DNA from: Macrostomum lignano
Taxonomy: Eukaryota
Direction: 5' to 3'
NCBI GenBank assembly: GCA_002269645.1
Contig: NIVC01000052.1
Span: forward strand, 558,001-622,000
DNA length: 64,000 bases
A program made the position numbers and the translations under genes. The notes beneath the pieces are model-generated. The model was not told where the DNA came from and ran no database searches. It worked only from the letters and a program-made list of their open reading frames with translations. Below, piece after piece: positions 149 to 62,771 of the stretch (within the stretch, counting starts at the first letter, position 1; each line of letters opens with the position of its first letter).

Positions 149-1258
149 CTAGGACTTTTGGCTGCCAGTGACTTTTGTCTGCCAGTGACTTTTGTCTGCC
201 AGTGACTTTCGACCGTCAGTGACTTTTGTCTGCCAGTGACTGTTGACCGCCAGTGACTTTTGACCGTCAGTGACTTTTGCCTGCCAGTGACTTTTGACCG
301 CCAGTGACTTTTGACCGTCAGTGACTTTCGACCGCCAGTGACTATCGACCGTCAGTGACTTTCGACTGTCAGTGACTTTTGTCTTCCAGTGACTGTTGAC
401 CGTCACCGCCAGTGACTTTTGACCGCCAGTGACTATCGACCGTCAGTGACTTTCGACCGCCAGTGACTATCGACCGTCAGGAGGGGGGGCCGTAGCCCAG
501 CGGTAGCGCAGCTGCTCTGGTGTCCCGCGACCCAGGCTCGATTCCAAGTGCAGCCACATTAATTTGGGGCTGAATTGGAATTTCGGCTTGGCTCGCTTGT
601 GCAATTAACGGCCTTGAGAGCCAACCCCCCAAGGCGCAGTGAAGTGTACATGCCTAACGATAATATAAAGTTAGGGCCGCTGTACACTCCTGTGTGAGTG
701 TGTGCCTGCGTACGTATCCGCGCGCTTGTGTGCCTGCTCAGGGGAGTCGGCGGAATGGGCAGTAATGCCTCTCGCCGGTTGTGTGCCTATGTCGCTTAAA
801 GTGCGCCAGGGTGCACACAACCCCCCTGCCTCTAATAAAAAAAATCGACCGTCAGTGACTTTCGACTGTCAGTGACTTTTGTCTTCCAGTGACTTTTGTC
901 TGCCAGTGACTTTTGTCTGCCAGTGACTTTCGACCGCCAGTGACTGTTGACCGCCAGTGACTTTCGACCGCCAGTGACTTTTGACCGCCAGTGACTTTTG
1001 ACCGCCAGTGACTTTTGTCTGCCAGTGACTTTCGACCGCCAGTGACTTTTGTCTGCCAGTGACTTTCGACCGTCAGTGACTTTTGTCTGCCAGTGACTGT
1101 TGACCGCCAGTGACTTTTGACCGTCAGTGACTTTCGACCGTCAGTGGCTTTTGGCTGCCAGTGACTTTTGTCTGCCAGTGACTGTTGACCGCCAGTGACT
1201 GTTGACCGCCAGGGACTTTTGCCTGCCAGTGACTTTCGACCGCCAGTGACTTTTGACC
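149..1258. repeat. Minisatellite, 16-17 bp unit (CAGTGACTTT(T/C)GACCGC and CAGTGACTTTTGTCTGC variants), interrupted by a SINE
   Basis: Tandem CAGTGACT-anchored units at 149-480 and 845-1258. The ORFs at 149..406 and 1141..1365 are translations of the repeat. Confidence 0.95.
481..843 (+). mobile_element. tRNA-derived SINE, family A, copy 1
   Basis: Head GGGGGGCCGTAGCCCAGCGGTAGCGC...GGCTCGATTCC has A/B-box-like motifs. Ends in AATAAAAAAAA. About 12-bp target-site duplication ATCGACCGTCAG at 469-480 and 844-855. A near-identical copy lies at 10059-10430. Confidence 0.88.
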
Positions 1259-1624
1259 AGTAGTATTATACCATACAAAATTGCCAGCAACAAACTAAAA
1301 TTAATGTTATTAAGGATAAATTCTACATTTTTCACTTCATTATCGCTCGTCTTCGCTCCACTCAACTCGCTCCGCTCATCCTCGCTTCATTTCGGTCAAA
1401 ATGTATAATTTATCCTTAATAACATTAATACTACCCTTTGTTTCTGAAATTTCGCTCTCGTCGTTCGCTTGTGGTTTGCTGGCAATTTTGTATGGTACAC
1501 CAACACATCCAACACTTCCAGCAGCAACCAACAGATACAAAACTTACTATTACTTTTAACCCTGGCCGCCCCGAAGGGGCTTGGGGCACAGAAAGCTTTT
1601 TTCTGTTACTAAAAATAGAGAAAA

Positions 1625-2036
1625 ATGACACACGTTAAACAATTATATAATTTGAATAAAATGCAAATAGGAGACCCAGTAGAATACAGAGGAGAGGGTC
1701 TTTTTGAAATAATAGGCACCCGCAGCAAATACAATAAAAGATAATATGCCACTAATAGCACAAGCAGGCTCAGCAGCAGGCTCTGTAACCAACGCAGTCA
1801 ATGGTGGAATAGAAGCAGCTAGGGCAGCAGAAGAGCTCAAGAAATTGAGAGATTTTAATGACACCATCTTGCAAATAAAAGCAATAAAAGACTTAAAGCT
1901 AGCACAAGAATCTGCTCAAGCCGCACAAGCTACTGAAACACCTACTAAAAGTAATCCATTGAGTAATAAAGACATCAAAGGTTTTAATAAAATGTTACGT
2001 ATGGTAAAAGGTGGAAAAGGATTAAAGAAGTTTTAG
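1625..2036 (+). pseudogene. Polinton-like small structural protein remnant with one frameshift (MTHVKQ...RGEGLFEIIG/AANTIKDNMPLIAQAGSAAGSVTNAVNGGIEAARAAEELKK...GGKGLKKF)
   Basis: The reading from ATG 1625 joins ORF 1746..2036 after one frameshift near 1720. It contains GEGLF and a terminal GKGL motif plus an Ala/Gly amphipathic segment. Confidence 0.55.
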
Positions 2037-2045
2037 TAATAAAAA

Positions 2046-3054
2046 ATGGACTCAGTTTTATCTTCAAACCATTGGAGAGAACATGATGAAAAGCGAATAT
2101 ATTTCCTAGCTGAAATAGTAGGCAGTTTAAATTTGGAAGATAATAATTCCAGCCACACCATCCTAAAAAGATTAGATAGATTGGGAAAGAAATTAGATTA
2201 TAATATTGAGACATTTAAACTTGCTGCAAAATATGCACAAGAAGGAAGATCAATTTCATTTAAACATAATAATAAAAATTATAGCTAGATTAACAGAATC
2301 AGATGTGAAATTTCTAATAGAGACTCACACCAAAAAAAGATGGTGGATTATTGTCCATTCTACCAATTCTTTTAGGACTTGGAGCGGCAGGAGCAACCGC
2401 ATTAGCAAGCAAAAGAATTCATGATAGTTAACAGTTACGAAAACAGCTTTAGCAGAATTAAAAGCAAAACAACAAGGGGGTATATTACCACTTGCAACAT
2501 TGCTACCAATAATTTTTGGAGGAATCGCGGCAGCTGGCGGAGTAGCGGGAGGAGCAGCAGGAATTGCTAAATCAGTAAATGACAAAAAAGCTGCAGATGA
2601 AAAAGCCAAACGAGATGCGGAATTCCAAAGACAGCAAATAACACAGTATGCACAATTTAAACAAAAACTTATAGATACCATAACATAGCTACACAGCAAC
2701 AGCAGCACAAAAAAGGAAATGCAGAAGCTAGATGAGCAGCTGGAAAAGGTTTAGGCCTACTGCTACAAGGAACAACTCACGGCGAAGGAATTGTAGCAGA
2801 CAAATTACATGAGTTCGGTCAAACTAGAAAAAACTGGTGAAAAGGCTAAAGGGTTTTTTGATAATATTGGGGCTAACTTTAGGCCTGGTGTTGAAAAGAT
2901 TTTTAATAAATTAGGAAAAGATTTTAACATTATTGAAAAACACGATGGAAGTGGATTATATCTCGAAATGAGACCAAAAGCAGGATCTGGCTTCTTTCTA
3001 AAAGGAACTGTTTCAGGAAATGGATTACTGTTACCAAAAGCGGAAATTGAATGA
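2046..3054 (+). pseudogene. Polinton/adintovirus core (pX-like) protein remnant with several frameshifts and stops
   Basis: Recoverable segments are DGGLLSILPILLGLGAAGATALASK, KQQGGILPLATLLPIIFGGIAAAGGVAGGAAGIAKSVNDKKAA, AAGKGLGLLL..HGEGI and FNIIEKHDGSGLYLEMRPKAGSGFFLKGTVSGNGLLL. The GG-[IF]-LP...AGGAAGIAK and GSGL[YF]L patterns match conserved Polinton ORFs as remembered; no search was run. Confidence 0.65.
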
Positions 3055-3088
3055 AAAATTAAAAAACAATAATTCAAACATTGTATAA

Positions 3089-3349
3089 ATTATATTCGAT
3101 AAAATAGAAGACATTCTAGCCCAAATCGATCCTAATCTAAGAGCTCAATTAGAAGCTCAAATAGAAGCTAGAATACAAGCAGAAAGAGAAAGAATAGAAG
3201 CTCAAATTAGAGCTGAAAATGATATACGTATACAAAGACAATTAGATGATATGGATCAACAACAAACAAAACAAAATGGGGTTGAAGTCATAAATATAGA
3301 TAATGAAATAAATACAGACTATAAAGAATGTGTCGCGTCGTTTAACTAA
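3089..3349 (+). pseudogene. Start-less 86-codon coiled-coil reading frame (IIFDKIEDILAQIDPNLRAQLEAQIEARIQAERERIEAQIRAEND...) inside the Polinton-like element
   Basis: Manual translation shows an open frame between two TAA codons with heptad-like E/Q/R/I/L periodicity. It is absent from the ORF track because it has no start codon. Confidence 0.4.
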
Positions 3350-4361
3350 GAGTTCAACTGAGTAGCACGATGATTTGGTAAAATAAACGATGTCTCAGTT
3401 TCGATGTATTATTCATCAACGATGCTAACACAAACGATGCTCAATATATAATTATTAACGCATTGGGGTGGTGGGGCACACGGGGCACGAAACCACTTAG
3501 TCACTTAGTCATAAGTACATCGGCAGAATCCAGCGCTGCCTCAGAATATTTTAGACAAATGAAACCAAGATTAATCAATATATTATTATCTCGTCTCGGT
3601 GGGAACTGCCGAAATTTATGCATTTTAACTTTGATTTATACACAGAAGAAAACAGTTAATAAATAAATTACATACATTTGGAATAGTTGATAATGGAAAT
3701 TACGAAACCGTTACAATTCCATTCAATATATGCTGTTTTATTATCTCTGCATTTTGAGCAACAGTTTCAAAAGTATCACTTACTGAAAATTTGTAAACTC
3801 GGCTCATTTTTAGTAACATAAAAAAGCTTTCTGTGCCCCAAGCCCCTACGGGGCGGCTAGGGGTCGTGTGTAATAGTAAGTTTTGTATCTGTTGGTTGCT
3901 GTCGGAAGTGTTAGATGTGTTAGTTGTGTTGGATGCTGTTAGTTAGGTAGTAGTATGTAAAAGTACGAATACAGATCAGAGAGTGTAATTAAAGAACACA
4001 TTTAGACGCCTAGTGGGGGGGGGGGGTCTGGAGGTTTTAGTTCTAATTGATTTTAGTAATTGGATTGAATAGATTGAATTATGGGGATTGATGTTTTTTA
4101 ATAGTGTTTTTTGTTCCCCTCCAGACCCCCCACTAGACGTCCAATTGTGTTGTTTAATTAGGGGTGCTGGGTCTGTACTCGTACTTTTACAAACAACTGA
4201 GTGGATTTGCACCCGAGGATGGCAGCTTGAATCCGGCTCTCTTCACAGATTTAATATACTCCCAGATGGGCCATTCCCAAACGAAGCGGGAAAACCGCGT
4301 TAAGGCCATAGACGGTAGCTTCTGCTGCCTTCTTCTGCTGATACAAACCCCCCTTCATTAA

Positions 4362-4642
4362 GGGGGTTGTAGCCCAAGGGTTGGAGCGTCGGACTCGCGA
4401 CTAAAAGGTCCCAACTCGGAACAATTTGTGTCCTTGAGCAAGGTACTTAACTCTGAGTTGCTTCGTTTCACCCAGCTATAAAATGGGTGCCAGCATTAGC
4501 TGGGGTAATTGAGGCTGTTTGTGACGACCCCCAGTCCTTGGACTGAACAGCCGTACGCAGCCTTCAGATGCGCCGCGCAATAGCTGCGGCTGAGCTGTCG
4601 GTCGCACATCTGGCCCAATTGGGGCAGGTGTAAACAATGTAT
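4362..4642 (+). mobile_element. tRNA-derived SINE, family B, copy 1 (degenerate head; 3' tail hit by a Tc1-like transposon)
   Basis: GGGGGTTGTAG head, central GTGTCCTTGAGCAAG.ACTTAACTCT domain and 3' CCAGTCCTTGGACTGAACAGCCGTACGCAGCC are all shared with 32381-32706. Confidence 0.8.
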
Positions 4643-4644
4643 TA

Positions 4645-5862
4645 CACCATTTTACCTCCTATTTTGAACAAAGTGTTGTTCAAAAGAAACAAGCAGAACT
4701 TCAATTCAAACACTTTAAGAAATAACAGCCCTTGCGGAAATTCAAATCAAACAAAGTCCTTTTCTATTGAAACAGAAGAACTTCAATTCAGACTGTCTGT
4801 GGCCAAAACTGTCCCCGAGTGACGCGCATGCGCAGATTTGAAATTCAAAAGAAACAAAGTCACATTCTATTTCGACAGAGATTTTTGCACATAGGTACAA
4901 GTTCATTTTAGTACATTAATCTAATTTTTTGTTTTTCCTGTACTGCATACTGTACAATCGTTGCGCAACAAGAAACGATATGAATGCTGAAGATCAGATT
5001 GAAGAAGACGATGAATTGCTGGAAGATGGAATCGATGAATTTGAAGCAGAATTCGATGAAGATATCATGGAACAGCAGCCTCGGCAGTGCACTAATGTTT
5101 AAGCAACAGTGATGAGACCGTATCATCAGGGCTGCTGATCGTGGGGATGACTTGTGGAACTGGCGCGCCAGCTTGGAGTCAAGAGGTCAACAGCGAATAC
5201 GATTGTGAGGTCAGGGAGAGCAGAAAAGCAGCCTACGAGATTCCGGACACCATTCAGGTTAAGCGGCTTCCACCATACAGTCCATTTTTGAGTCCTGTGG
5301 AGAACTCAATCTCCTGTTGGAAGAACACTCTGAAGAGAAAACTGGCAGCAGACCAGCAAAATTTCATCCCTCCGATAGCTGAGCAGCACGGGAATCAAGT
5401 CAATGGCGGCCTATCGGCGAGACATTCTGTACATGGTGGACAGAACCGTTTACTGCATCTCTGTGGACAAATGCATTGAGTGGTTCAACCATGTGTTTAC
5501 ATACGTCCCTCGCTGCGTTGGTGGACAGGTAATTGATGGTTAGGTGTCTCAAGTTGGCCAACTGACACTGTCTTGTTCCTGTTTTTCATTTTACTCTCTT
5601 GTTCGTCGATATGCTGCGTTTTATCCCTTTGTCGAAATAGAATGTGACTTTGTTTCTTTTGAATTTCAAATCTGCGCATGCGCGTCACTCGGGGACAATT
5701 TTGGCCACAGACAGTCTGAATTGAAGTTCTTCTGTTTCAATAGAAAAGGACTTTGTTTGATTTGAATTTCCGGAAGGGCTGTTATTTCTTAAAGTGTTCG
5801 AATTGAAGTTCTGCTTGTTTCTTTTGAACAAGACTTTGTTCAAAATAGGAGGTAAAATGGTG
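4645..5862 (+). mobile_element. Internally deleted Tc1/mariner-IS630 superfamily DNA transposon with about 233-bp TIRs
   Basis: TIRs at 4645-4877 and 5630-5862 (CACCATTTTACC...GGTAAAATGGTG), with TA duplication at 4643-44 and 5863-64. Transposase remnants include an HTH (ELARQLGVKRSTANTIVR, about 5157-5210) and LPPYSPFLSPVENSISCWK (last DDE motif, about 5265-5325). Confidence 0.9.
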
Positions 5863-5873
5863 TACTATTTTGG

Positions 5874-54883: not shown

Positions 54884-56789
54884 TAATTTCTCCCTTTCTG
54901 CGCTTGGATGCCGAGTAAGCAAGACAACTAATCACTCTCCTAAGCGAGGATGAAAGACTTGACAAGACAAATCTGTGTTTCTGTGAAAGACAAATATTCA
55001 AGCTTTAGAATTAGGTTTCTATTCTTTACAGGCGGGGAGTAGGCTGATCAATTGGCTGGTCTCTGTCTTATTTAACCAGCTGCATTCCTGGCCAAGCGGC
55101 TGCTTCAGCTGCGCCATGCATTTTATTTTCAAAGTAGTTGAGCTTTATATACTACTTGCATAGTATAATAGGATAGTTACTACTATTATTACTAACTAGA
55201 CTGGTCTCTCGTGTACATATATGCTAAATAATTAAATCTAGGACAATAAGCACAACTTGAATCCAACACTGGATAGACATTGTTATGGCATTTAATACTA
55301 GAGGTTAGACAAGATATTATGCTTACAAATTTACAAAAACTAGGTCAATCTTTAAGCAAAGTAAAACGATTTGTTAATTCTAAAAAGCCAGGTTTTTTGA
55401 AGAAAAAATTGTTTGATTATACAGACAATAACAAAATCAGTACCATAATTTATCAGATCAATATGATATTGGCATGGCACTTAAAAAAAAGTGCATTTTT
55501 GGTATTTTATAATATTATTTTATTTATAGTATCATTAGGGCTGAAATAAGATTTTAAAAAATATTCTTTGACTATTTTTAATTCAATAATCTCAATTGTC
55601 TAAATAAAGACACCCTACTTGTTGTTGTTGTTAAACAGGGATGGGAAGCCAAATAAAGACACCCTACATAAAAAAGGTCAATTAAAAACATAAAAAGACT
55701 TGTGATTAATTTCAGAAAAATGGCTCAACTGATTTTTTTCAAACTTGCACCATTTGATAAAAAATGTCTATGATGGTACATACATTTTGGCTCAGAAATA
55801 GCTTGGTGCTAAAGGGATTAAATATTCAAAAAACATTGCCTATAACTATAAAAAACCATTAAACTTAAATGGTAAAAATCTTTAATAAATTTTCATACAT
55901 AGGTAGCTAGCTAAATTAATGTCTTGTAGAGCAAAATATTATTTTGGAAAAAAACAATTGGCTCATTCCATATAAGATGGACATATTTGGAAAATAGAAA
56001 AAAGTCAATATTTTTGCTTGCCATTGCCTAATTAGCCTATTTTTTTTACCAAATGTTTATATTGTGCAATATATACAATCTAAGAATAAAGGAATGGTAA
56101 AATGTTGGATTAGTATGTTATCAATTGGCAAAAAGTCATTTTTGTAAAAATTTGGACATTTTTTGAAGCAAAAGACATCATTAAGATTTTGTACCTTTTA
56201 AAAACAAATAGAAAGCTTTTGAAGGTTGAAACAAACTATAGATAAAAGTATAATACTTGCATCATCAGATAAAAGCATTGGTGACCAAATAATCTATTAT
56301 ATTTTTAATGTATTAGTACCTCAAAGTTACTGAATTGACAGAAAAAAATATGTTACGACCATAAGGCTGCCTTTTCTTTTGTATCTTTGTTGCCTTTTGA
56401 GTTTATATATTCTAATAAAAGAGTATGATTTCTAAAGATGTTCTTAGCCAAATTTTAAAAATGTATTGCAAAATATCAAAAAGGAAAAATGTTATAAGAC
56501 TTTTACCTTTTAGTTTCTATATGTCAAAAATCTTGTCGTTACGACCATAAGTGTCATTTAAGGTTTAATAGCATCTATACTAATGATGATATTTATATGA
56601 AACTCTATAAGTCTAAATTGTTTACTTTAGTTATTTAATTATTTAAGAACCTAACATTTAAGTAAAGCTTAAATTAAATCTACATTTTAAACATAAAAAT
56701 CATTTTACAACTTATTGCTTATATCAATTATTTTTTATTAAACTCCCATTAGAAAAAGTTACATTTGTACAGATAGCCATAGATCTAGT

Positions 56790-57030
56790 CTAGGTTTATT
56801 TTTTGTATGCAGTGTGCATATGCACCTTAAATTTTAAAATTGCACCTTGAAATTGAAAAATGGATGCAGTTTAGATGCAGTCTCATAACCTATTTTTTTC
56901 CATTGAAGCCTTATTTACACTACCTTTGAATAAAAAAAGAGAAATTGCACTTTGAGCCTTAAAATTGCACCCTGAAAGTGAGCATAGGGTGCAATTTTGC
57001 ACCTTGTCTCTGGCCAAAAAGAAAACCCTG
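56790..57030. mobile_element. hAT-type MITE, 241 bp (copy 1)
   Basis: 8-bp TSD GATCTAGT (56782-89 / 57031-38). Imperfect 16-bp TIR CTAGGTTTATTTTTTG versus CAGGGTTTTCTTTTTG. Repeated AAATTGCAC subterminal motifs. Confidence 0.65.
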
Positions 57031-59848
57031 GATCTAGTGTGCTTTAAAAAGTGTTGACATGGTTGGTATACTAGAAGGGCTAAATGGTGATGCACTAAAG
57101 GGATAACATACTAGAGAGAGAGAGAGAGCAAACACTCAAAGGGTGGCACATAAATAACATGAGAACTAACATGTTAAAGTTGAAAGATAGCATACTTATC
57201 TTGTTCATCTTGCTATGGCAAATTGCCAAAGGCTTTTATCACTTACACAGCATTGAGAAGCCTTAAATTAGTCATAGCAATTTTAGTTTTAATAATAATA
57301 GCTAGCTTGCAAGCTCTATAGTCAAGAAGGTGGCCTTGGCCAAGGTAAAATTCTGGCACTTACACAAGGGGTCCTTAGAGCACTTGGCATACAATCATGG
57401 TGCACATTGAGGTCCTTGGCGTATGCGGCACACAATCATGGTGCAAACTGAGGTCCCTAGTGCATGTAGCGCATAACTGTCGCGCATGCAGTGCATAAGT
57501 AAGGTCCCTGACATATGTGGTGCTATGTACAACTTTGGTTTATAAGGAATCAAAATAGAATCTTTATTAACATAAAACTGGCATAGCATATTGAGTCTAC
57601 ATGAATTATAAGAATTTTGTAAATGTCGTAAAATATATAATTTACATAAAATACATAACTTACATAAAATACATAAATTATCTAAATTATGTAAAATAAG
57701 GGCAGACATGGCGCACAGACGCCACACAGAAGGTGCACAAATGGCGCATAAACAGCGTACAGATTGCCCCAAAAAAATTATTTTGGCGCACACTATGCCA
57801 CCTTCCTTAGGCTACTATGGTGCAGGCTATAGAAAGTAAAGAAACATGCAAAGTTATATATTTTTTACAATTTTTAAGTAAAAAATAGTAAACTATTTGT
57901 TAGCTAAACAATAAATGCAATAGGCCTAGGCCTAATATAATATTACATTAAATTAAATATTAGGCTTTTATTTTAAATTTTAGAATTTGATTTGACAATC
58001 CCAAGTGTCAACTGTCAACACATGGTACAAGGAATAAAATTGCTTTGGCCCATGGCGCATGAAGAAAAAAAGGGGAAAATTTATTCTGGCACACGTGGTT
58101 CACGTTCCTGACAATGACCATTGGGGCCTAGCCTAATAACAATACTTTGATACAATACAATGGAATATCATTTTAAGGCAGGCTTAGTGCTACTTAAAAT
58201 CAATTGAACATATGGCATACAATATAACTAACAAATAAATGGCAGCTGTCAAATTATTTTGATCAAGGAAAATCACAAAATACATACGAAAATTTAACCA
58301 AAGGCACACCAAACAATAATATGGTCTGCATTTGCAGTTACAGTCAAAAGACTAATTAAACCAAATATTTATTTGACAGGCATAACTTTTGGACTTAATA
58401 TGTACAAAATAACCCAAAGAAGATAATAGAAACTCTAAATTCGCTTTTACCGCCGTTTTAAACAGTATTTTGATGAATTTATTGATGACACCAAAATATG
58501 ATTTTTATTCCGCTTGTTTTCTTTTTCTGAAAAATAACCGTATAGTTTAATTTGACCATAAATAGGTTTTCCGTTTAAAACAAAATTACTGTCATATTTT
58601 ATAGTTTAAACGATTACTTTAAGTTCAAGTTCATTTATATGAATGATAAAAATATTTTTTAAAAATTTTTACAATGCACATTAGTAATAAAGAAGTAGAG
58701 TTTTTATTTTAATTTTCTTTTGTATAGAATTTTTAACCGCCCTGCATTGCTAACCCGAACTATTAATTAAGTTAAACGACGCCGAAATTGTCACCATGCT
58801 ATTCGTGTTTTTTCGGTCTTAGTAAAATGAATCTTGTATAATTTAAAGAATCAGATCTTATGTTGCGAAGCATGCAGTATATTTTTGGCGAATCTTATAA
58901 CTAAACCTGCATGAATATGTTTCCAAAGCGTTATAATTTAATGTTTGCTTTTTAGCTTGTTTTTAAGTAGTATATTGGGATGTTATACTGCTTTTTGTAA
59001 ATTCAAATATGTTTTTTTCTATTTTGCTTGCCATTTGCCAAAAAGAAGGCAAAAATGGAAGGTTACGAAAATGTGGTGTAAAAAACGTTAAAAACTTTTA
59101 GTTTTATCAGATTACCACGCATGTAACTGTTCATCCTGCACTCTGTTCATCTGACGATCGCTTAAAGCGGTAGCTACTACCGAAAGCAATAGTCATTAGG
59201 ATGGGCTTTAAAAGCAGAAAAATTACGCGTGCAGCATCATTAAGATTTTGTACCTTTTAAAAACAAATAGAAAGCTTTTGAAGGTTGAAACAAACTATAG
59301 ATAAAAGTATAATACTTGCATCATCAGATAAAAGCATTGGTGACCAAATAATCTATTATATTTTTAATGTATTAGTACCTCAAAGTTACTGAATTGACAG
59401 AAAAAAATATGTTACGACCATAAGGCTGCCTTTTCTTTTGTATCTTTGTTGCCTTTTGAGTTTATATATTCTAATAAAAGAGTATGATTTCTAAAGATGT
59501 TCTTAGCCAAATTTTAAAAATGTATTGCAAAATATCAAAAAGGAAAAATGTTATAAGACTTTTACCTTTTAGTTTCTATATGTCAAAAATCTTGTCGTTA
59601 CGACCATAAGTGTCATTTAAGGTTTAATAGCATCTATACTAATGATGATATTTATATGAAACTCTATAAGTCTAAATTGTTTACTTTAGTTATTTAATTA
59701 TTTAAGAACCTAACATTTAAGTAAAGCTTAAATTAAATCTACATTTTAAACATAAAAATCATTTTACAACTTATTGCTTATATCAATTATTTTTTATTAA
59801 ACTCCCATTAGAAAAAGTTACATTTGTACAGATAGCCATAGATCTAGT

Positions 59849-60089
59849 CTAGGTTTATTTTTTGTATGCAGTGTGCATATGCACCTTAAATTTTAAAATT
59901 GCACCTTGAAATTGAAAAATGGATGCAGTTTAGATGCAGTCTCATAACCTATTTTTTTCCATTGAAGCCTTATTTACACTACCTTTGAATAAAAAAAGAG
60001 AAATTGCACTTTGAGCCTTAAAATTGCACCCTGAAAGTGAGCATAGGGTGCAATTTTGCACCTTGTCTCTGGCCAAAAAGAAAACCCTG
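59849..60089. mobile_element. hAT-type MITE (copy 2, carried by the tandem duplication)
   Basis: Same as 56790-57030, offset by 3059. Confidence 0.65.
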
Positions 60090-62771
60090 GATCTAGTGTG
60101 CTTTAAAAAGTGTTGACATGGTTGGTATACTAGAAGGGCTAAATGGTGATGCACTAAAGGGATAACATACTAGAGAGAGAGAGAGAGCAAACACTCAAAG
60201 GGTGGCACATAAATAACATGAGAACTAACATGTTAAAGTTGAAAGATAGCATACTTATCTTGTTCATCTTGCTATGGCAAATTGCCAAAGGCTTTTATCA
60301 CTTACACAGCATTGAGAAGCCTTAAATTAGTCATAGCAATTTTAGTTTTAATAATAATAGCTAGCTTGCAAGCTCTATAGTCAAGAAGGTGGCCTTGGCC
60401 AAGGTAAAATTCTGGCACTTACACAAGGGGTCCTTAGTGCACTTGGCATACAATCATGGTGCACATTGAGGTCCTTGGCGTATGCGGCACACAATCATGG
60501 TGCAAACTGAGGTCCCTAGTGCATGTAGCGCATAACTGTCGCGCATGCAGTGCATAAGTAAGGTCCCTGACATATGTGGTGCTATGTACAACTTTGGTTT
60601 ATAAGGAATCAAAATAGAATCTTTATTAACATAAAACTGGCATAGCATATTGAGTCTACATGAATTATAAGAATTTTGTAAATGTCGTAAAATATATAAT
60701 TTACATAAAATACATAACTTACATAAAATACATAAATTATCTAAATTATGTAAAATAAGGGCAGACATGGCGCACAGACGCCACACAGAAGGTGCACAAA
60801 TGGCGCATAAACAGCGTACAGATTGCCCCAAAAAAATTATTTTGGCGCACACTATGCCACCTTCCTTAGGCTACTATGGTGCAGGCTATAGAAAGTAAAG
60901 AAACATGCAAAGTTATATATTTTTTACAATTTTTAAGTAAAAAATAGTAAACTATTTGTTAGCTAAACAATAAATGCAATAGGCCTAGGCCTAATATAAT
61001 ATTACATTAAATTAAATATTAGGCTTTTATTTTAAATTTTAGAATTTGATTTGACAATCCCAAGTGTCAACTGTCAACACATGGTACAAGGAATAAAATT
61101 GCTTTGGCCCATGGCGCATGAAGAAAAAAAGGGGAAAATTTATTCTGGCACACGTGGTTCACGTTCCTGACAATGACCATTGGGGCCTAGCCTAATAACA
61201 ATACTTTGATACAATACAATGGAATATCATTTTAAGGCAGGCTTAGTGCTACTTAAAATCAATTGAACATATGGCATACAATATAACTAACAAATAAATG
61301 GCAGCTGTCAAATTATTTTGATCAAGGAAAATCACAAAATACATACGAAAATTTAACCAAAGGCACACCAAACAATAATATGGTCTGCATTTGCAGTTAC
61401 AGTCAAAAGACTAATTAAACCAAATATTTATTTGACAGGCATAACTTTTGGACTTAATATGTACAAAATAACCCAAAGAAGATAATAGAAACTCTAAATT
61501 CGCTTTTACCGCCGTTTTAAACAGTATTTTGATGAATTTATTGATGACACCAAAATATGATTTTTATTCCGCTTGTTTTCTTTTTCTGAAAAATAACCGT
61601 ATAGTTTAATTTGACCATAAATAGGTTTTCCGTTTAAAACAAAATTACTGTCATATTTTATAGTTTAAACGATTACTTTAAGTTCAAGTTCATTTATATG
61701 AATGATAAAAATATTTTTTAAAAATTTTTACAATGCACATTAGTAATAAAGAAGTAGAGTTTTTATTTTAATTTTCTTTTGTATAGAATTTTTAACCGCC
61801 CTGCATTGCTAACCCGAACTATTAATTAAGTTAAACGACGCCGAAATTGTCACCATGCTATTCGTGTTTTTTCGGTCTTAGTAAAATGAATCTTGTATAA
61901 TTTAAAGAATCAGATCTTATGTTGCGAAGCATGCAGTATATTTTTGGCGAATCTTATAACTAAACCTGCATGAATATGTTTCCAAAGCGTTATAATTTAA
62001 TGTTTGCTTTTTAGCTTGTTTTTAAGTAGTATATTGGGATGTTATACTGCTTTTTGTAAATTCAAATATGTTTTTTTCTATTTTGCTTGCCATTTGCCAA
62101 AAAGAAGGCAAAAATGGAAGGTTACGAAAATGTGGTGTAAAAAACGTTAAAAACTTTTAGTTTTATCAGATTACCACGCATGTAACTGTTCATCCTGCAC
62201 TCTGTTCATCTGACGATCGCTTAAAGCGGTAGCTACTACCGAAAGCAATAGTCATTAGGATGGGCTTTAAAAGCAGAAAAATTACGCGTGCAGTTGCGGA
62301 ATTGAGCGAGTAGTGCAGTTTCGAGAAGGCCTGGTGCGCCAGGTCTGTTAAGGTTCAGTGGGTGTCAAATGCTCCAAGGTTTGTGGGTCTTGGATGCGTG
62401 TCATGATTGATGACATAGGAGAATGGCTTGTAAATACAGCATGTTCTTAGCAAATGACAGTTTTACAGCACGAAGTAAGGACATGGGTTTATGACTTTAT
62501 TTGTACATGTAGGTCTCGGGTGATTTCTAAGAATGCGAGTGTGTTTCGGTGTGCTGTATGTGTATTTGCTGTCGCTGAGAAAAGATTCAGAGAGCACAGA
62601 TTGATTTCTGCTAGCCCGAGCATGGAGAGAAATAATTATTCTGGCGTCCCGGCTCCCGGATGTTGGGGCTCAATGCATCCATTAAATATGGACTCACTCC
62701 CTGTGCCCACTTTCTAGATTGCGCATGGGATCTCGGGTCATGACCTATAGAAGAGAGAGGTTAAGTTATCG

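Follow-up and report, generated by a model that had tools for sequence, protein, structure and literature searches.

How does a Polinton-like element of 2.9 kb come to end in two unlike hairpins, at the end of a satellite array and without a duplicated target site? The element in question occupies positions 1259-4198 of a 64,000-nt stretch of the Macrostomum lignano genome, called here the window (assembly GCA_002269645.1, contig NIVC01000052.1, positions 558,001-622,000; contig C52 of the 764-Mb assembly used for our genome searches). An earlier note, made from the letters alone, took it for a replication-derived defective or satellite genome with self-priming ends like those of parvoviruses and densoviruses. 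We favour another account: the element is probably a single, frameshifted hybrid remnant of the host's own Polinton family, formed by recombination of two integrated copies and shortened later in the chromosome. The remnant itself likely does nothing; it is ordinary debris, a dead one-off, and the part worth following is the coupling between hairpin type and polymerase class in the family to which it belongs.

Structure of the element

The element opens with AGTAGT at 1259 and closes with ACAACT at 4198, one mismatch away from (ACT)2. Its left end folds back through an outer stem of 22 nt (1269-1290 with 1476-1497, 100% identity) and a second stem of 32 nt (1300-1331 with 1398-1429, 97%), and its right end through three stems (3949-3975/4172-4198, 3986-4020/4126-4160 and 4021-4034/4118-4131). 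Folded as DNA, as the note had proposed, the two ends yield z = -9.9 and z = -8.9, with 0 of 200 shuffles as good in either case. Long matching terminal inverted repeats (TIRs) were not found in the window element: only an inner repeat of 119 nt is alike at its two ends (1499-1616/3806-3924, 89% identity), and the outer hairpins represent two different types, A and B. Both are normal TIR types of full-length copies of 16-18.6 kb, whose TIRs open with a fold-back of 240-290 nt; the window hairpins are inherited, not new. The flanking hexamers (TTGACC on the left, GAGTGG on the right) do not form a 6-bp target site duplication (TSD), and the 17-bp satellite array is present on the left side only, without restarting beyond the element. 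The parts, including open reading frames (ORFs) and the remains of long terminal repeat (LTR) retroelements, are the following:

847-1258, forward strand: 17-bp satellite array, left flank, host DNA
1259-1497, unstranded: type-A terminal fold-back of a Polinton TIR, found elsewhere always with polymerase class 1 among typed copies
1498-1616, unstranded: inner part of the left TIR, holding a 29-nt tag in common with the right copy and private to this locus
1625-2036, forward strand: ORF1, homologous to a 132-aa ORF in intact copies and broken by a single frameshift
2043-3054, forward strand: pX-domain gene, homologous to a 324-aa ORF that has a weak adenovirus pX-like domain, and broken by about six frameshifts
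3089-3330, forward strand: 5' stub of a class-2 (endonuclease VII-containing) polymerase frame, start codon absent
3331-3543, reverse strand: solo LTR left by retroelement 1, with TG..CA ends and a 5-bp target duplication (one mismatch)
3544-3589, forward strand: class-2 polymerase stub, resuming beyond the solo LTR for 46 bases
3590-3715, reverse strand: remnant of LTR retroelement 2 at the deletion joint, comprising internal bases of the primer-site side and part of one LTR
3716-3807, reverse strand (3807-3712 by tblastn): initial ~32 codons of the 104-aa terminal ORF from the Polinton right end
3806-3948, unstranded: inner part of the right TIR and a low-complexity linker
3949-4198, unstranded: type-B terminal fold-back, a diverged variant, found elsewhere always with polymerase class 2 among typed copies

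We mapped these pieces by tblastn with the natural proteins of full copies, and every ORF piece in the window matched them, the polymerase match comprising the first 82 residues (3089-3328). No match to the integrase, ATPase, putative capsid or putative protease of full copies was obtained in the 64-kb window. What the note had seen as small ORFs are frameshifted pieces of two longer genes, with about seven frameshifts in all, plus the polymerase stub and the terminal-ORF stub; its peptide motifs (GGILP..AGGAAGIAK and GSGLYL) sit in the frames 2428-2688 and 2797-3054. Its description of the termini, unlike fold-backs, inner inverted repeat (given as ~120 bp), motifs, missing TSD and satellite border is thus accurate, as is its attribution to a Polinton. 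The statement that only virion core-type genes are carried stands for the pX-domain gene and fails for the two stubs. The element retains ~2.1 kb of the family's left end and ~0.5 kb of its right end, and ~360 bp of the interior is LTR-retroelement DNA.

By its position, ORF1 may correspond to the Cupiennin-type accessory gene of adintoviruses, as that gene is described in the available text of PMC8502044. An atlas search with ORF1 gave leads below 0.9 only, a scan of viral contigs gave no relative, and 28 candidates of similar length included none related to an 86-aa window piece at E 0.01; for the intact 324-aa family protein, 4 unnamed relatives were found among 8000 scored. Pfam matches of window pieces to SseC and others lay below their cut-offs and were set aside.

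The parent Polinton family

A genome search with the whole element returned 456 candidates; among the best 40, which were scored, none but the window itself spans the full length, and most cover its first 1.8-2.1 kb at 75-83%. Ten of these matches could be extended to elements of 16.0-18.6 kb, the full-length partners that the note had hoped to find. Ends of the form AGTAGT..ACTACT with a 6-bp TSD were observed in 5/6 bounded copies and in 12/14 further pairs; the other two matched-end pairs lack a TSD, which would fit recombination between copies. Copy C3469, with a 333-nt TIR and the TSD ATCATC, matches DNA_pol_B_2 (E 8e-20), Pox_A32 (A32-type ATPase, 6.4e-7) and the rve integrase (7.5e-7, below the curated cut-off). 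Its 324-aa ORF matches adenovirus pX at E 1.4e-4, below the cut-off, and its 490-aa and 155-aa ORFs receive no Pfam name; from size, position and motifs, we take these two to be a putative capsid and a putative protease.

The parent family therefore carries the pPolB, rve integrase and packaging ATPase by which Polintons/Mavericks are recognised, with TIRs and a 6-bp TSD, whereas the window copy, with a polymerase stub only, is a derivative and not an intact member. According to the available text of Barreat and Katzourakis (PMC8097293), these elements have (AGT)2//(ACT)2 ends, a 6-bp TSD, a length of ~17 kb and TIRs of 46-1447 bp, and 96% of loci are degraded. The parent family fits this description; the window copy departs from it in its unlike outer TIRs and missing TSD, and the fold-back that opens the family's TIRs is a further difference.

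Terminus patterns detected at least 31 type-A and at least 192 type-B ends in the assembly, both being lower bounds, as the type-A pattern missed even the spacing of the window. Eighteen of the 31 type-A matches form 9 inward-facing pairs, 3-32 kb apart, and type-B termini pair likewise (first 100 of 192); overall, the pairs span 3-57 kb. In matched pairs the two ends carry an identical terminal variant, apart from C56 with two differing letters, and the TSDs lie outside the hairpins.

Several unusual copies were met. C1040:22365-25404 (L017) is a separate deleted A/pol1 copy of 3.04 kb, with 374-nt TIRs that are 99% alike and a 6-bp TSD; its ORF1 and pX frames are open, polymerase and integrase sequence meet at a clean joint, and it is nearer than the window element to the note's "mini-Polinton". 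At C87:100793-108214 (L039), two left ends stand inverted with mirrored flanks and no TSD, from an inversion or an assembly artefact. In the left ends at L015:3170-3770 and L020:905-1500, a short stretch resembling the right end comes after the TIR, and another inner-TIR anchor precedes ORF1; many pol2 copies have extra DNA in this TIR/ORF1 region. Full-length copies also encode a 661-aa ORF with 19-aa repeats and an F5/8 type C domain (L035:7108-9093), possibly a fibre or receptor-binding protein.

Hairpin type and polymerase class

Two polymerases occur in the family. The long ORF that follows pX in C283 carries polymerase motifs and a Pfam endonuclease VII domain (Endonuclease_7), and can hardly be aligned to the C3469 polymerase, the best local match having an E of 0.015. 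The candidate reading of 3089-3330 as the 5' end of a C3469-type PolB was rejected, since the stub belongs to the unrelated class. Apart from the polymerase, the two classes share backbones of 83-96% identity, which separate just where the polymerase begins.

We examined 57 left ends, 21 of which lack one or both labels. The 36 ends typed for both traits comprise 14 A+pol1, 21 B+pol2 and a single A+pol2, and this last is the window, in which an A end and pol2 are combined with a B end on the right. On a tree of the ORF1+pX block (35 rows; C1197, whose alignment was split, is excluded), the labels need 5-6 changes, at least 2-3 of them forced by well-supported branches. This pattern indicates that hairpin type and polymerase class switch together several times, the number of events being rough as the block may itself be recombinant. 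The window ORF1+pX block is sister to the A/pol1 copy C578 (98/93 support), yet pol2 comes next. The genes between hairpin and polymerase are shuffled, and even so the hairpin follows the polymerase class.

To characterise the hairpins, we used the termini of the fetched loci: 38 distinct ends of 44 kept, 19 of type A and 19 of type B, with the window's two included. One non-family terminus was dropped (an AGTAGTA near the C600 right end, belonging to another inserted element), and 21 other anchors had no terminus within range. Loop polarity is uniform in 38/38 ends (19/19 A, 19/19 B), that is, no flip/flop was seen. The type-B stem pairs to the last base; type A leaves ~10 terminal bases unpaired. 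The two arms vary in concert. Two-sided changes affect 15/26 outer-stem pairs across 16 B ends, with 96.9% of cells pairing, which 0/500 shuffles reach, and 4/24 pairs across 14 A ends, a count that 13/500 shuffles reach; these covariation scores are inflated by relatedness, and arm-to-arm copying would mimic selection on structure. The ranking of arm partners is weak (own arm best in 7/19 A and 10/19 B ends), a result of competition among near-identical copies and of bulges that interrupt the alignments.

Three further type-B hairpins deserve mention. At C1307:52497-52765 (L119), the inner arm repeats the outer arm almost perfectly, even at bases where the two usually differ, which suggests arm-to-arm copying. 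Those at C1391:147960-148400 and C273:238400-238800 are joined to an inner repeat that elsewhere accompanies type A; C1391 also has, 7 kb off, a pol1-like piece of distant similarity (37%), its link to that end being unclear.

Origin of the window element

We propose that a crossover in the shared inner-TIR/ORF1/pX block would have joined an A/pol1 left arm that lay within the satellite to the remainder of a B/pol2 copy; the product would have unlike hairpins, unlike flanks and no TSD. An LTR retroelement would then have entered the terminal ORF, and a deletion from about polymerase codon 95 to just inside the retroelement would have removed ~15 kb. Finally, another LTR element (retroelement 1) would have inserted into the polymerase stub and collapsed to a solo LTR. 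The components with their family origin, the two retroelement remnants, the A/pol1-B/pol2 pairing elsewhere and the lack of sister copies among the candidates scored are direct observations; the order of the steps is reconstructed.

Recombination in the chromosome between two inserted copies accounts for the absence of a TSD, for a satellite confined to one side and for the 10% divergence of the inner repeats, which differ at 12/118 positions compared with 0-6 per 240-339 nt (0-2.5%) in five matched copies. Since the left arm is sister to the A/pol1 copy C578 and the remainder is B/pol2, one crossover is implied. For such a one-crossover hybrid, a chromosomal origin is more likely than a viral one; under either, the 2.9-kb form resulted from later deletion, most likely in the chromosome.

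The later steps can be followed in two contigs, C600 and C55, whose flanks are ~98% alike to the window locus and which both carry retroelement 1. LTR copies of this retroelement occur in direct pairs 4-6 kb apart with 5-bp TSDs; the whole retroelement, with both LTRs, lies at the same site in C600, and the window solo LTR is a recombinant of those two LTRs. At the deletion joint, polymerase DNA is followed by the bases that adjoin the LTR on its primer-site side in an intact retroelement 2 copy, then by part of the LTR and the Polinton right end. Retroelement 2 has 4-bp TSDs elsewhere, and one side is gone at the window joint; C600 retains ~190 bp more of the remnant. A reading of 3612-3715 as a solo LTR produced by LTR-LTR recombination was rejected: the joint contains internal retroelement bases, which means a deletion into the element. 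This joint was found only in the window and C600, the same locus (17/17 candidates scored); the same-size sister copies foreseen in the note were thus not found, and joint searches gave no sign of movement after the deletion. Both C600 and C55 have lost window positions 1349-3289, and the right hairpin of C600 has been lost to another insertion; decay at this locus is therefore a continuing, host-style rearrangement. The right flank has only three weak relatives (74-75%), and these revealed no empty site.

C600 and C55 are two further versions of the window locus (alleles or duplicates). Next to the Polinton right end, C600 also has an insertion of 12 kb, the inverted arms of which measure 2.95 kb.

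Some observations weigh against the recombination of two integrated copies. The 29-nt tag, present in both inner repeats and nowhere else in the assembly at ≤2 mismatches, is easier to explain by one molecule than by two insertions; with two, both parents would have to come from one rare subfamily. Searches of the assembly found neither an intact parent copy nor the reciprocal product, and the lack of sister copies holds for the best 40 candidates scored. The available text of 10.1101/2025.02.07.637071 reports Polintons that stay mobile with LTR elements aboard, so the LTR at the joint is by itself no proof of a chromosomal deletion. Moreover, the data do not fix the order of the crossover and the deletion.

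The shared tag leaves room for a second account, which we regard as possible, if rather unlikely: the hybrid may have arisen as a single viral molecule in which a polymerase swap between co-replicating A/pol1 and B/pol2 genomes was only half completed, and which integrated before end homogenisation; the deletion and LTR events would have followed in the chromosome. The structure is the exact single-crossover product needed for hairpin and polymerase to move jointly across the ORF1/pX tree, A/pol1 and B/pol2 copies part right at the polymerase start, and the tag is private to both window ends. A freshly integrated molecule of this kind is harder to reconcile with the missing TSD beside two precise termini, with inner repeats 10% apart, and with right-hairpin arms that pair at 82%, versus 87-100% in the other 18 B ends; nor is there a second mismatched copy among the other 35 typed left ends.

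We find it very unlikely that the element is, as the note held, a replication-derived satellite or defective genome that primes itself from new hairpin ends and needs a helper Polinton. The fold-backs are strong, the type-B inner arm pairs to the last base, so that a 3' end could prime, and the 3.04-kb copy at C1040 keeps the same two genes open between matched TIRs and with a TSD. Yet the hairpins come from full-length copies, their loops are never inverted, type A leaves its terminal bases unpaired, the genes are frameshifted, and a retroelement sits at the deletion joint. The element occupies a single locus, several insertions with the same joint and their own TSDs were not encountered among the 17 candidates scored, and the C1040 joint likewise has a full-length match only at C1040 (best 40 of 174 candidates).

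An assembly chimera of different Polinton copies is similarly improbable. The assembly is repeat-rich, with >200 family termini, and no single public contig covers the whole element. The public run data, which are assembled contigs and so would not reveal free ends, nevertheless cross its critical joints: in 4/4 runs (3 studies) a single contig covers the inner repeat, right hairpin and flank, and in 3/4 runs a listed contig covers the pX-polymerase-LTR joint, the fourth reaching only 3277. Assembly error is therefore no explanation for these joints. C600 and C55 likewise connect the satellite with the beginning of hairpin A and with the pol2 stub, and in the public contigs the right hairpin has a depth similar to that of unique interior pieces.

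That the hairpins are independent miniature inverted-repeat transposable elements flanking a Polinton fragment, the note's own alternative, is hardly credible: each has its own inverted arms, and one 335-bp insertion with a 6-bp TSD consists of two type-B termini only (C12:947145-947479, L118), but termini of both types pair inward as Polinton ends and have their TSDs outside the hairpins.

Relation to known systems

Polymerase exchange has precedents, as far as the available texts describe them. In nematode Polintons, pPolB1 and pPolB2 are exchanged, two distant polymerases, one with an HNH-type nuclease insert, in a near-identical backbone (Jeong et al., 10.1101/2023.08.22.554363); adintoviruses exchange Alpha and Beta PolB (Starrett et al., PMC8502044). 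Here too, two polymerases share a closely similar backbone and pol2 has Endonuclease_7; on this domain resemblance we tentatively equate the two classes with pPolB1/pPolB2. In the account of Jeong et al., TIRs are highly conserved when the polymerase is swapped, whereas here the outer hairpin changes with the polymerase. For Polinton-like viruses, a turnover of end modules has been proposed, in which TIRs would be replaced jointly with replication genes (PMC11296320), and replicase mosaicism is described in 10.64898/2026.10.13.758929. The cases described there are helicase/recombinase modules next to the repeat; in M. lignano, by contrast, 2 kb of freely exchanged genes separate hairpin and polymerase, within one host genome. 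The word "hairpin" is absent from the main text of PMC8097293 and PMC8502044. We found no report of polymerase-linked Polinton hairpins in the literature covered, most subscription papers, Repbase and the supplements, whose TIR alignments may bear on the point, being outside its scope.

The termini of parvoviruses and densoviruses are fold-backs of similar size to those here, and a type-B 3' end would likewise be paired. The family differs in its AGT slide-back repeat ends, its integrase-type TSDs and the lack of flip/flop. Pfam scans of 7 frames from the window and of 12 C3469 ORFs gave no HUH/Rep match; pol2 possesses an endonuclease VII domain instead. Certain parvovirus termini occur in a single orientation, so the uniform polarity lowers, without excluding, the chance of hairpin priming. 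The likeness to parvovirus-type self-priming ends drawn in the note is not supported, the hairpins being ordinary family TIRs.

Adenoviruses homogenise their ends, and the same terminal variant at both ends of matched pairs would fit such a process. The AGT repeat is presented as the slide-back motif of protein priming in the available text of PMC8097293. We infer that the family fold-back forms part of an origin read by the cognate terminal protein and polymerase. The fold-backs would likely belong to a polymerase-specific, protein-primed origin, their arms likely kept complementary by fold-back copying on the displaced strand. More speculatively, and on balance less probably than not, the fold-back may be a polymerase-specific origin module: a class change by one crossover would leave unlike ends, the new polymerase would rewrite the foreign hairpin from its own end, and the window locus would be that intermediate, fixed in the chromosome. 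The type-B hairpin, which is fully paired, may then be a substrate of endonuclease VII, a domain present only in the class-2 polymerase.

Polinton replication is known mostly from sequence inference, and polymerase swaps have been reported without a matching change of ends. A single genome that holds recent copies by the dozen, with structured end and polymerase class inherited jointly despite exchange of the intervening genes, points to a cis signal that each polymerase needs. This coupling would explain how a polymerase swap could be completed, offers a sequence-defined substrate for Polinton origins, and can be checked in other genomes that have both polymerase classes.

Neighbouring features of the window

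Short interspersed repeats with tRNA-like heads, as judged by eye, lie at 481-842 and 4360-4620. The former breaks up the satellite and recurs in C578; the latter has an extreme depth in the public contigs. Adjoining the right flank, 4737-5870 is an element of ~1.1 kb with inverted ends and a frame whose motif resembles that of a DDE transposase. Further along, the AT-rich region 55000-62000 contains an apparent direct duplication of ~3.06 kb, with short repeats paired at 56821/59880, 57629/60688 and 57953/61012.

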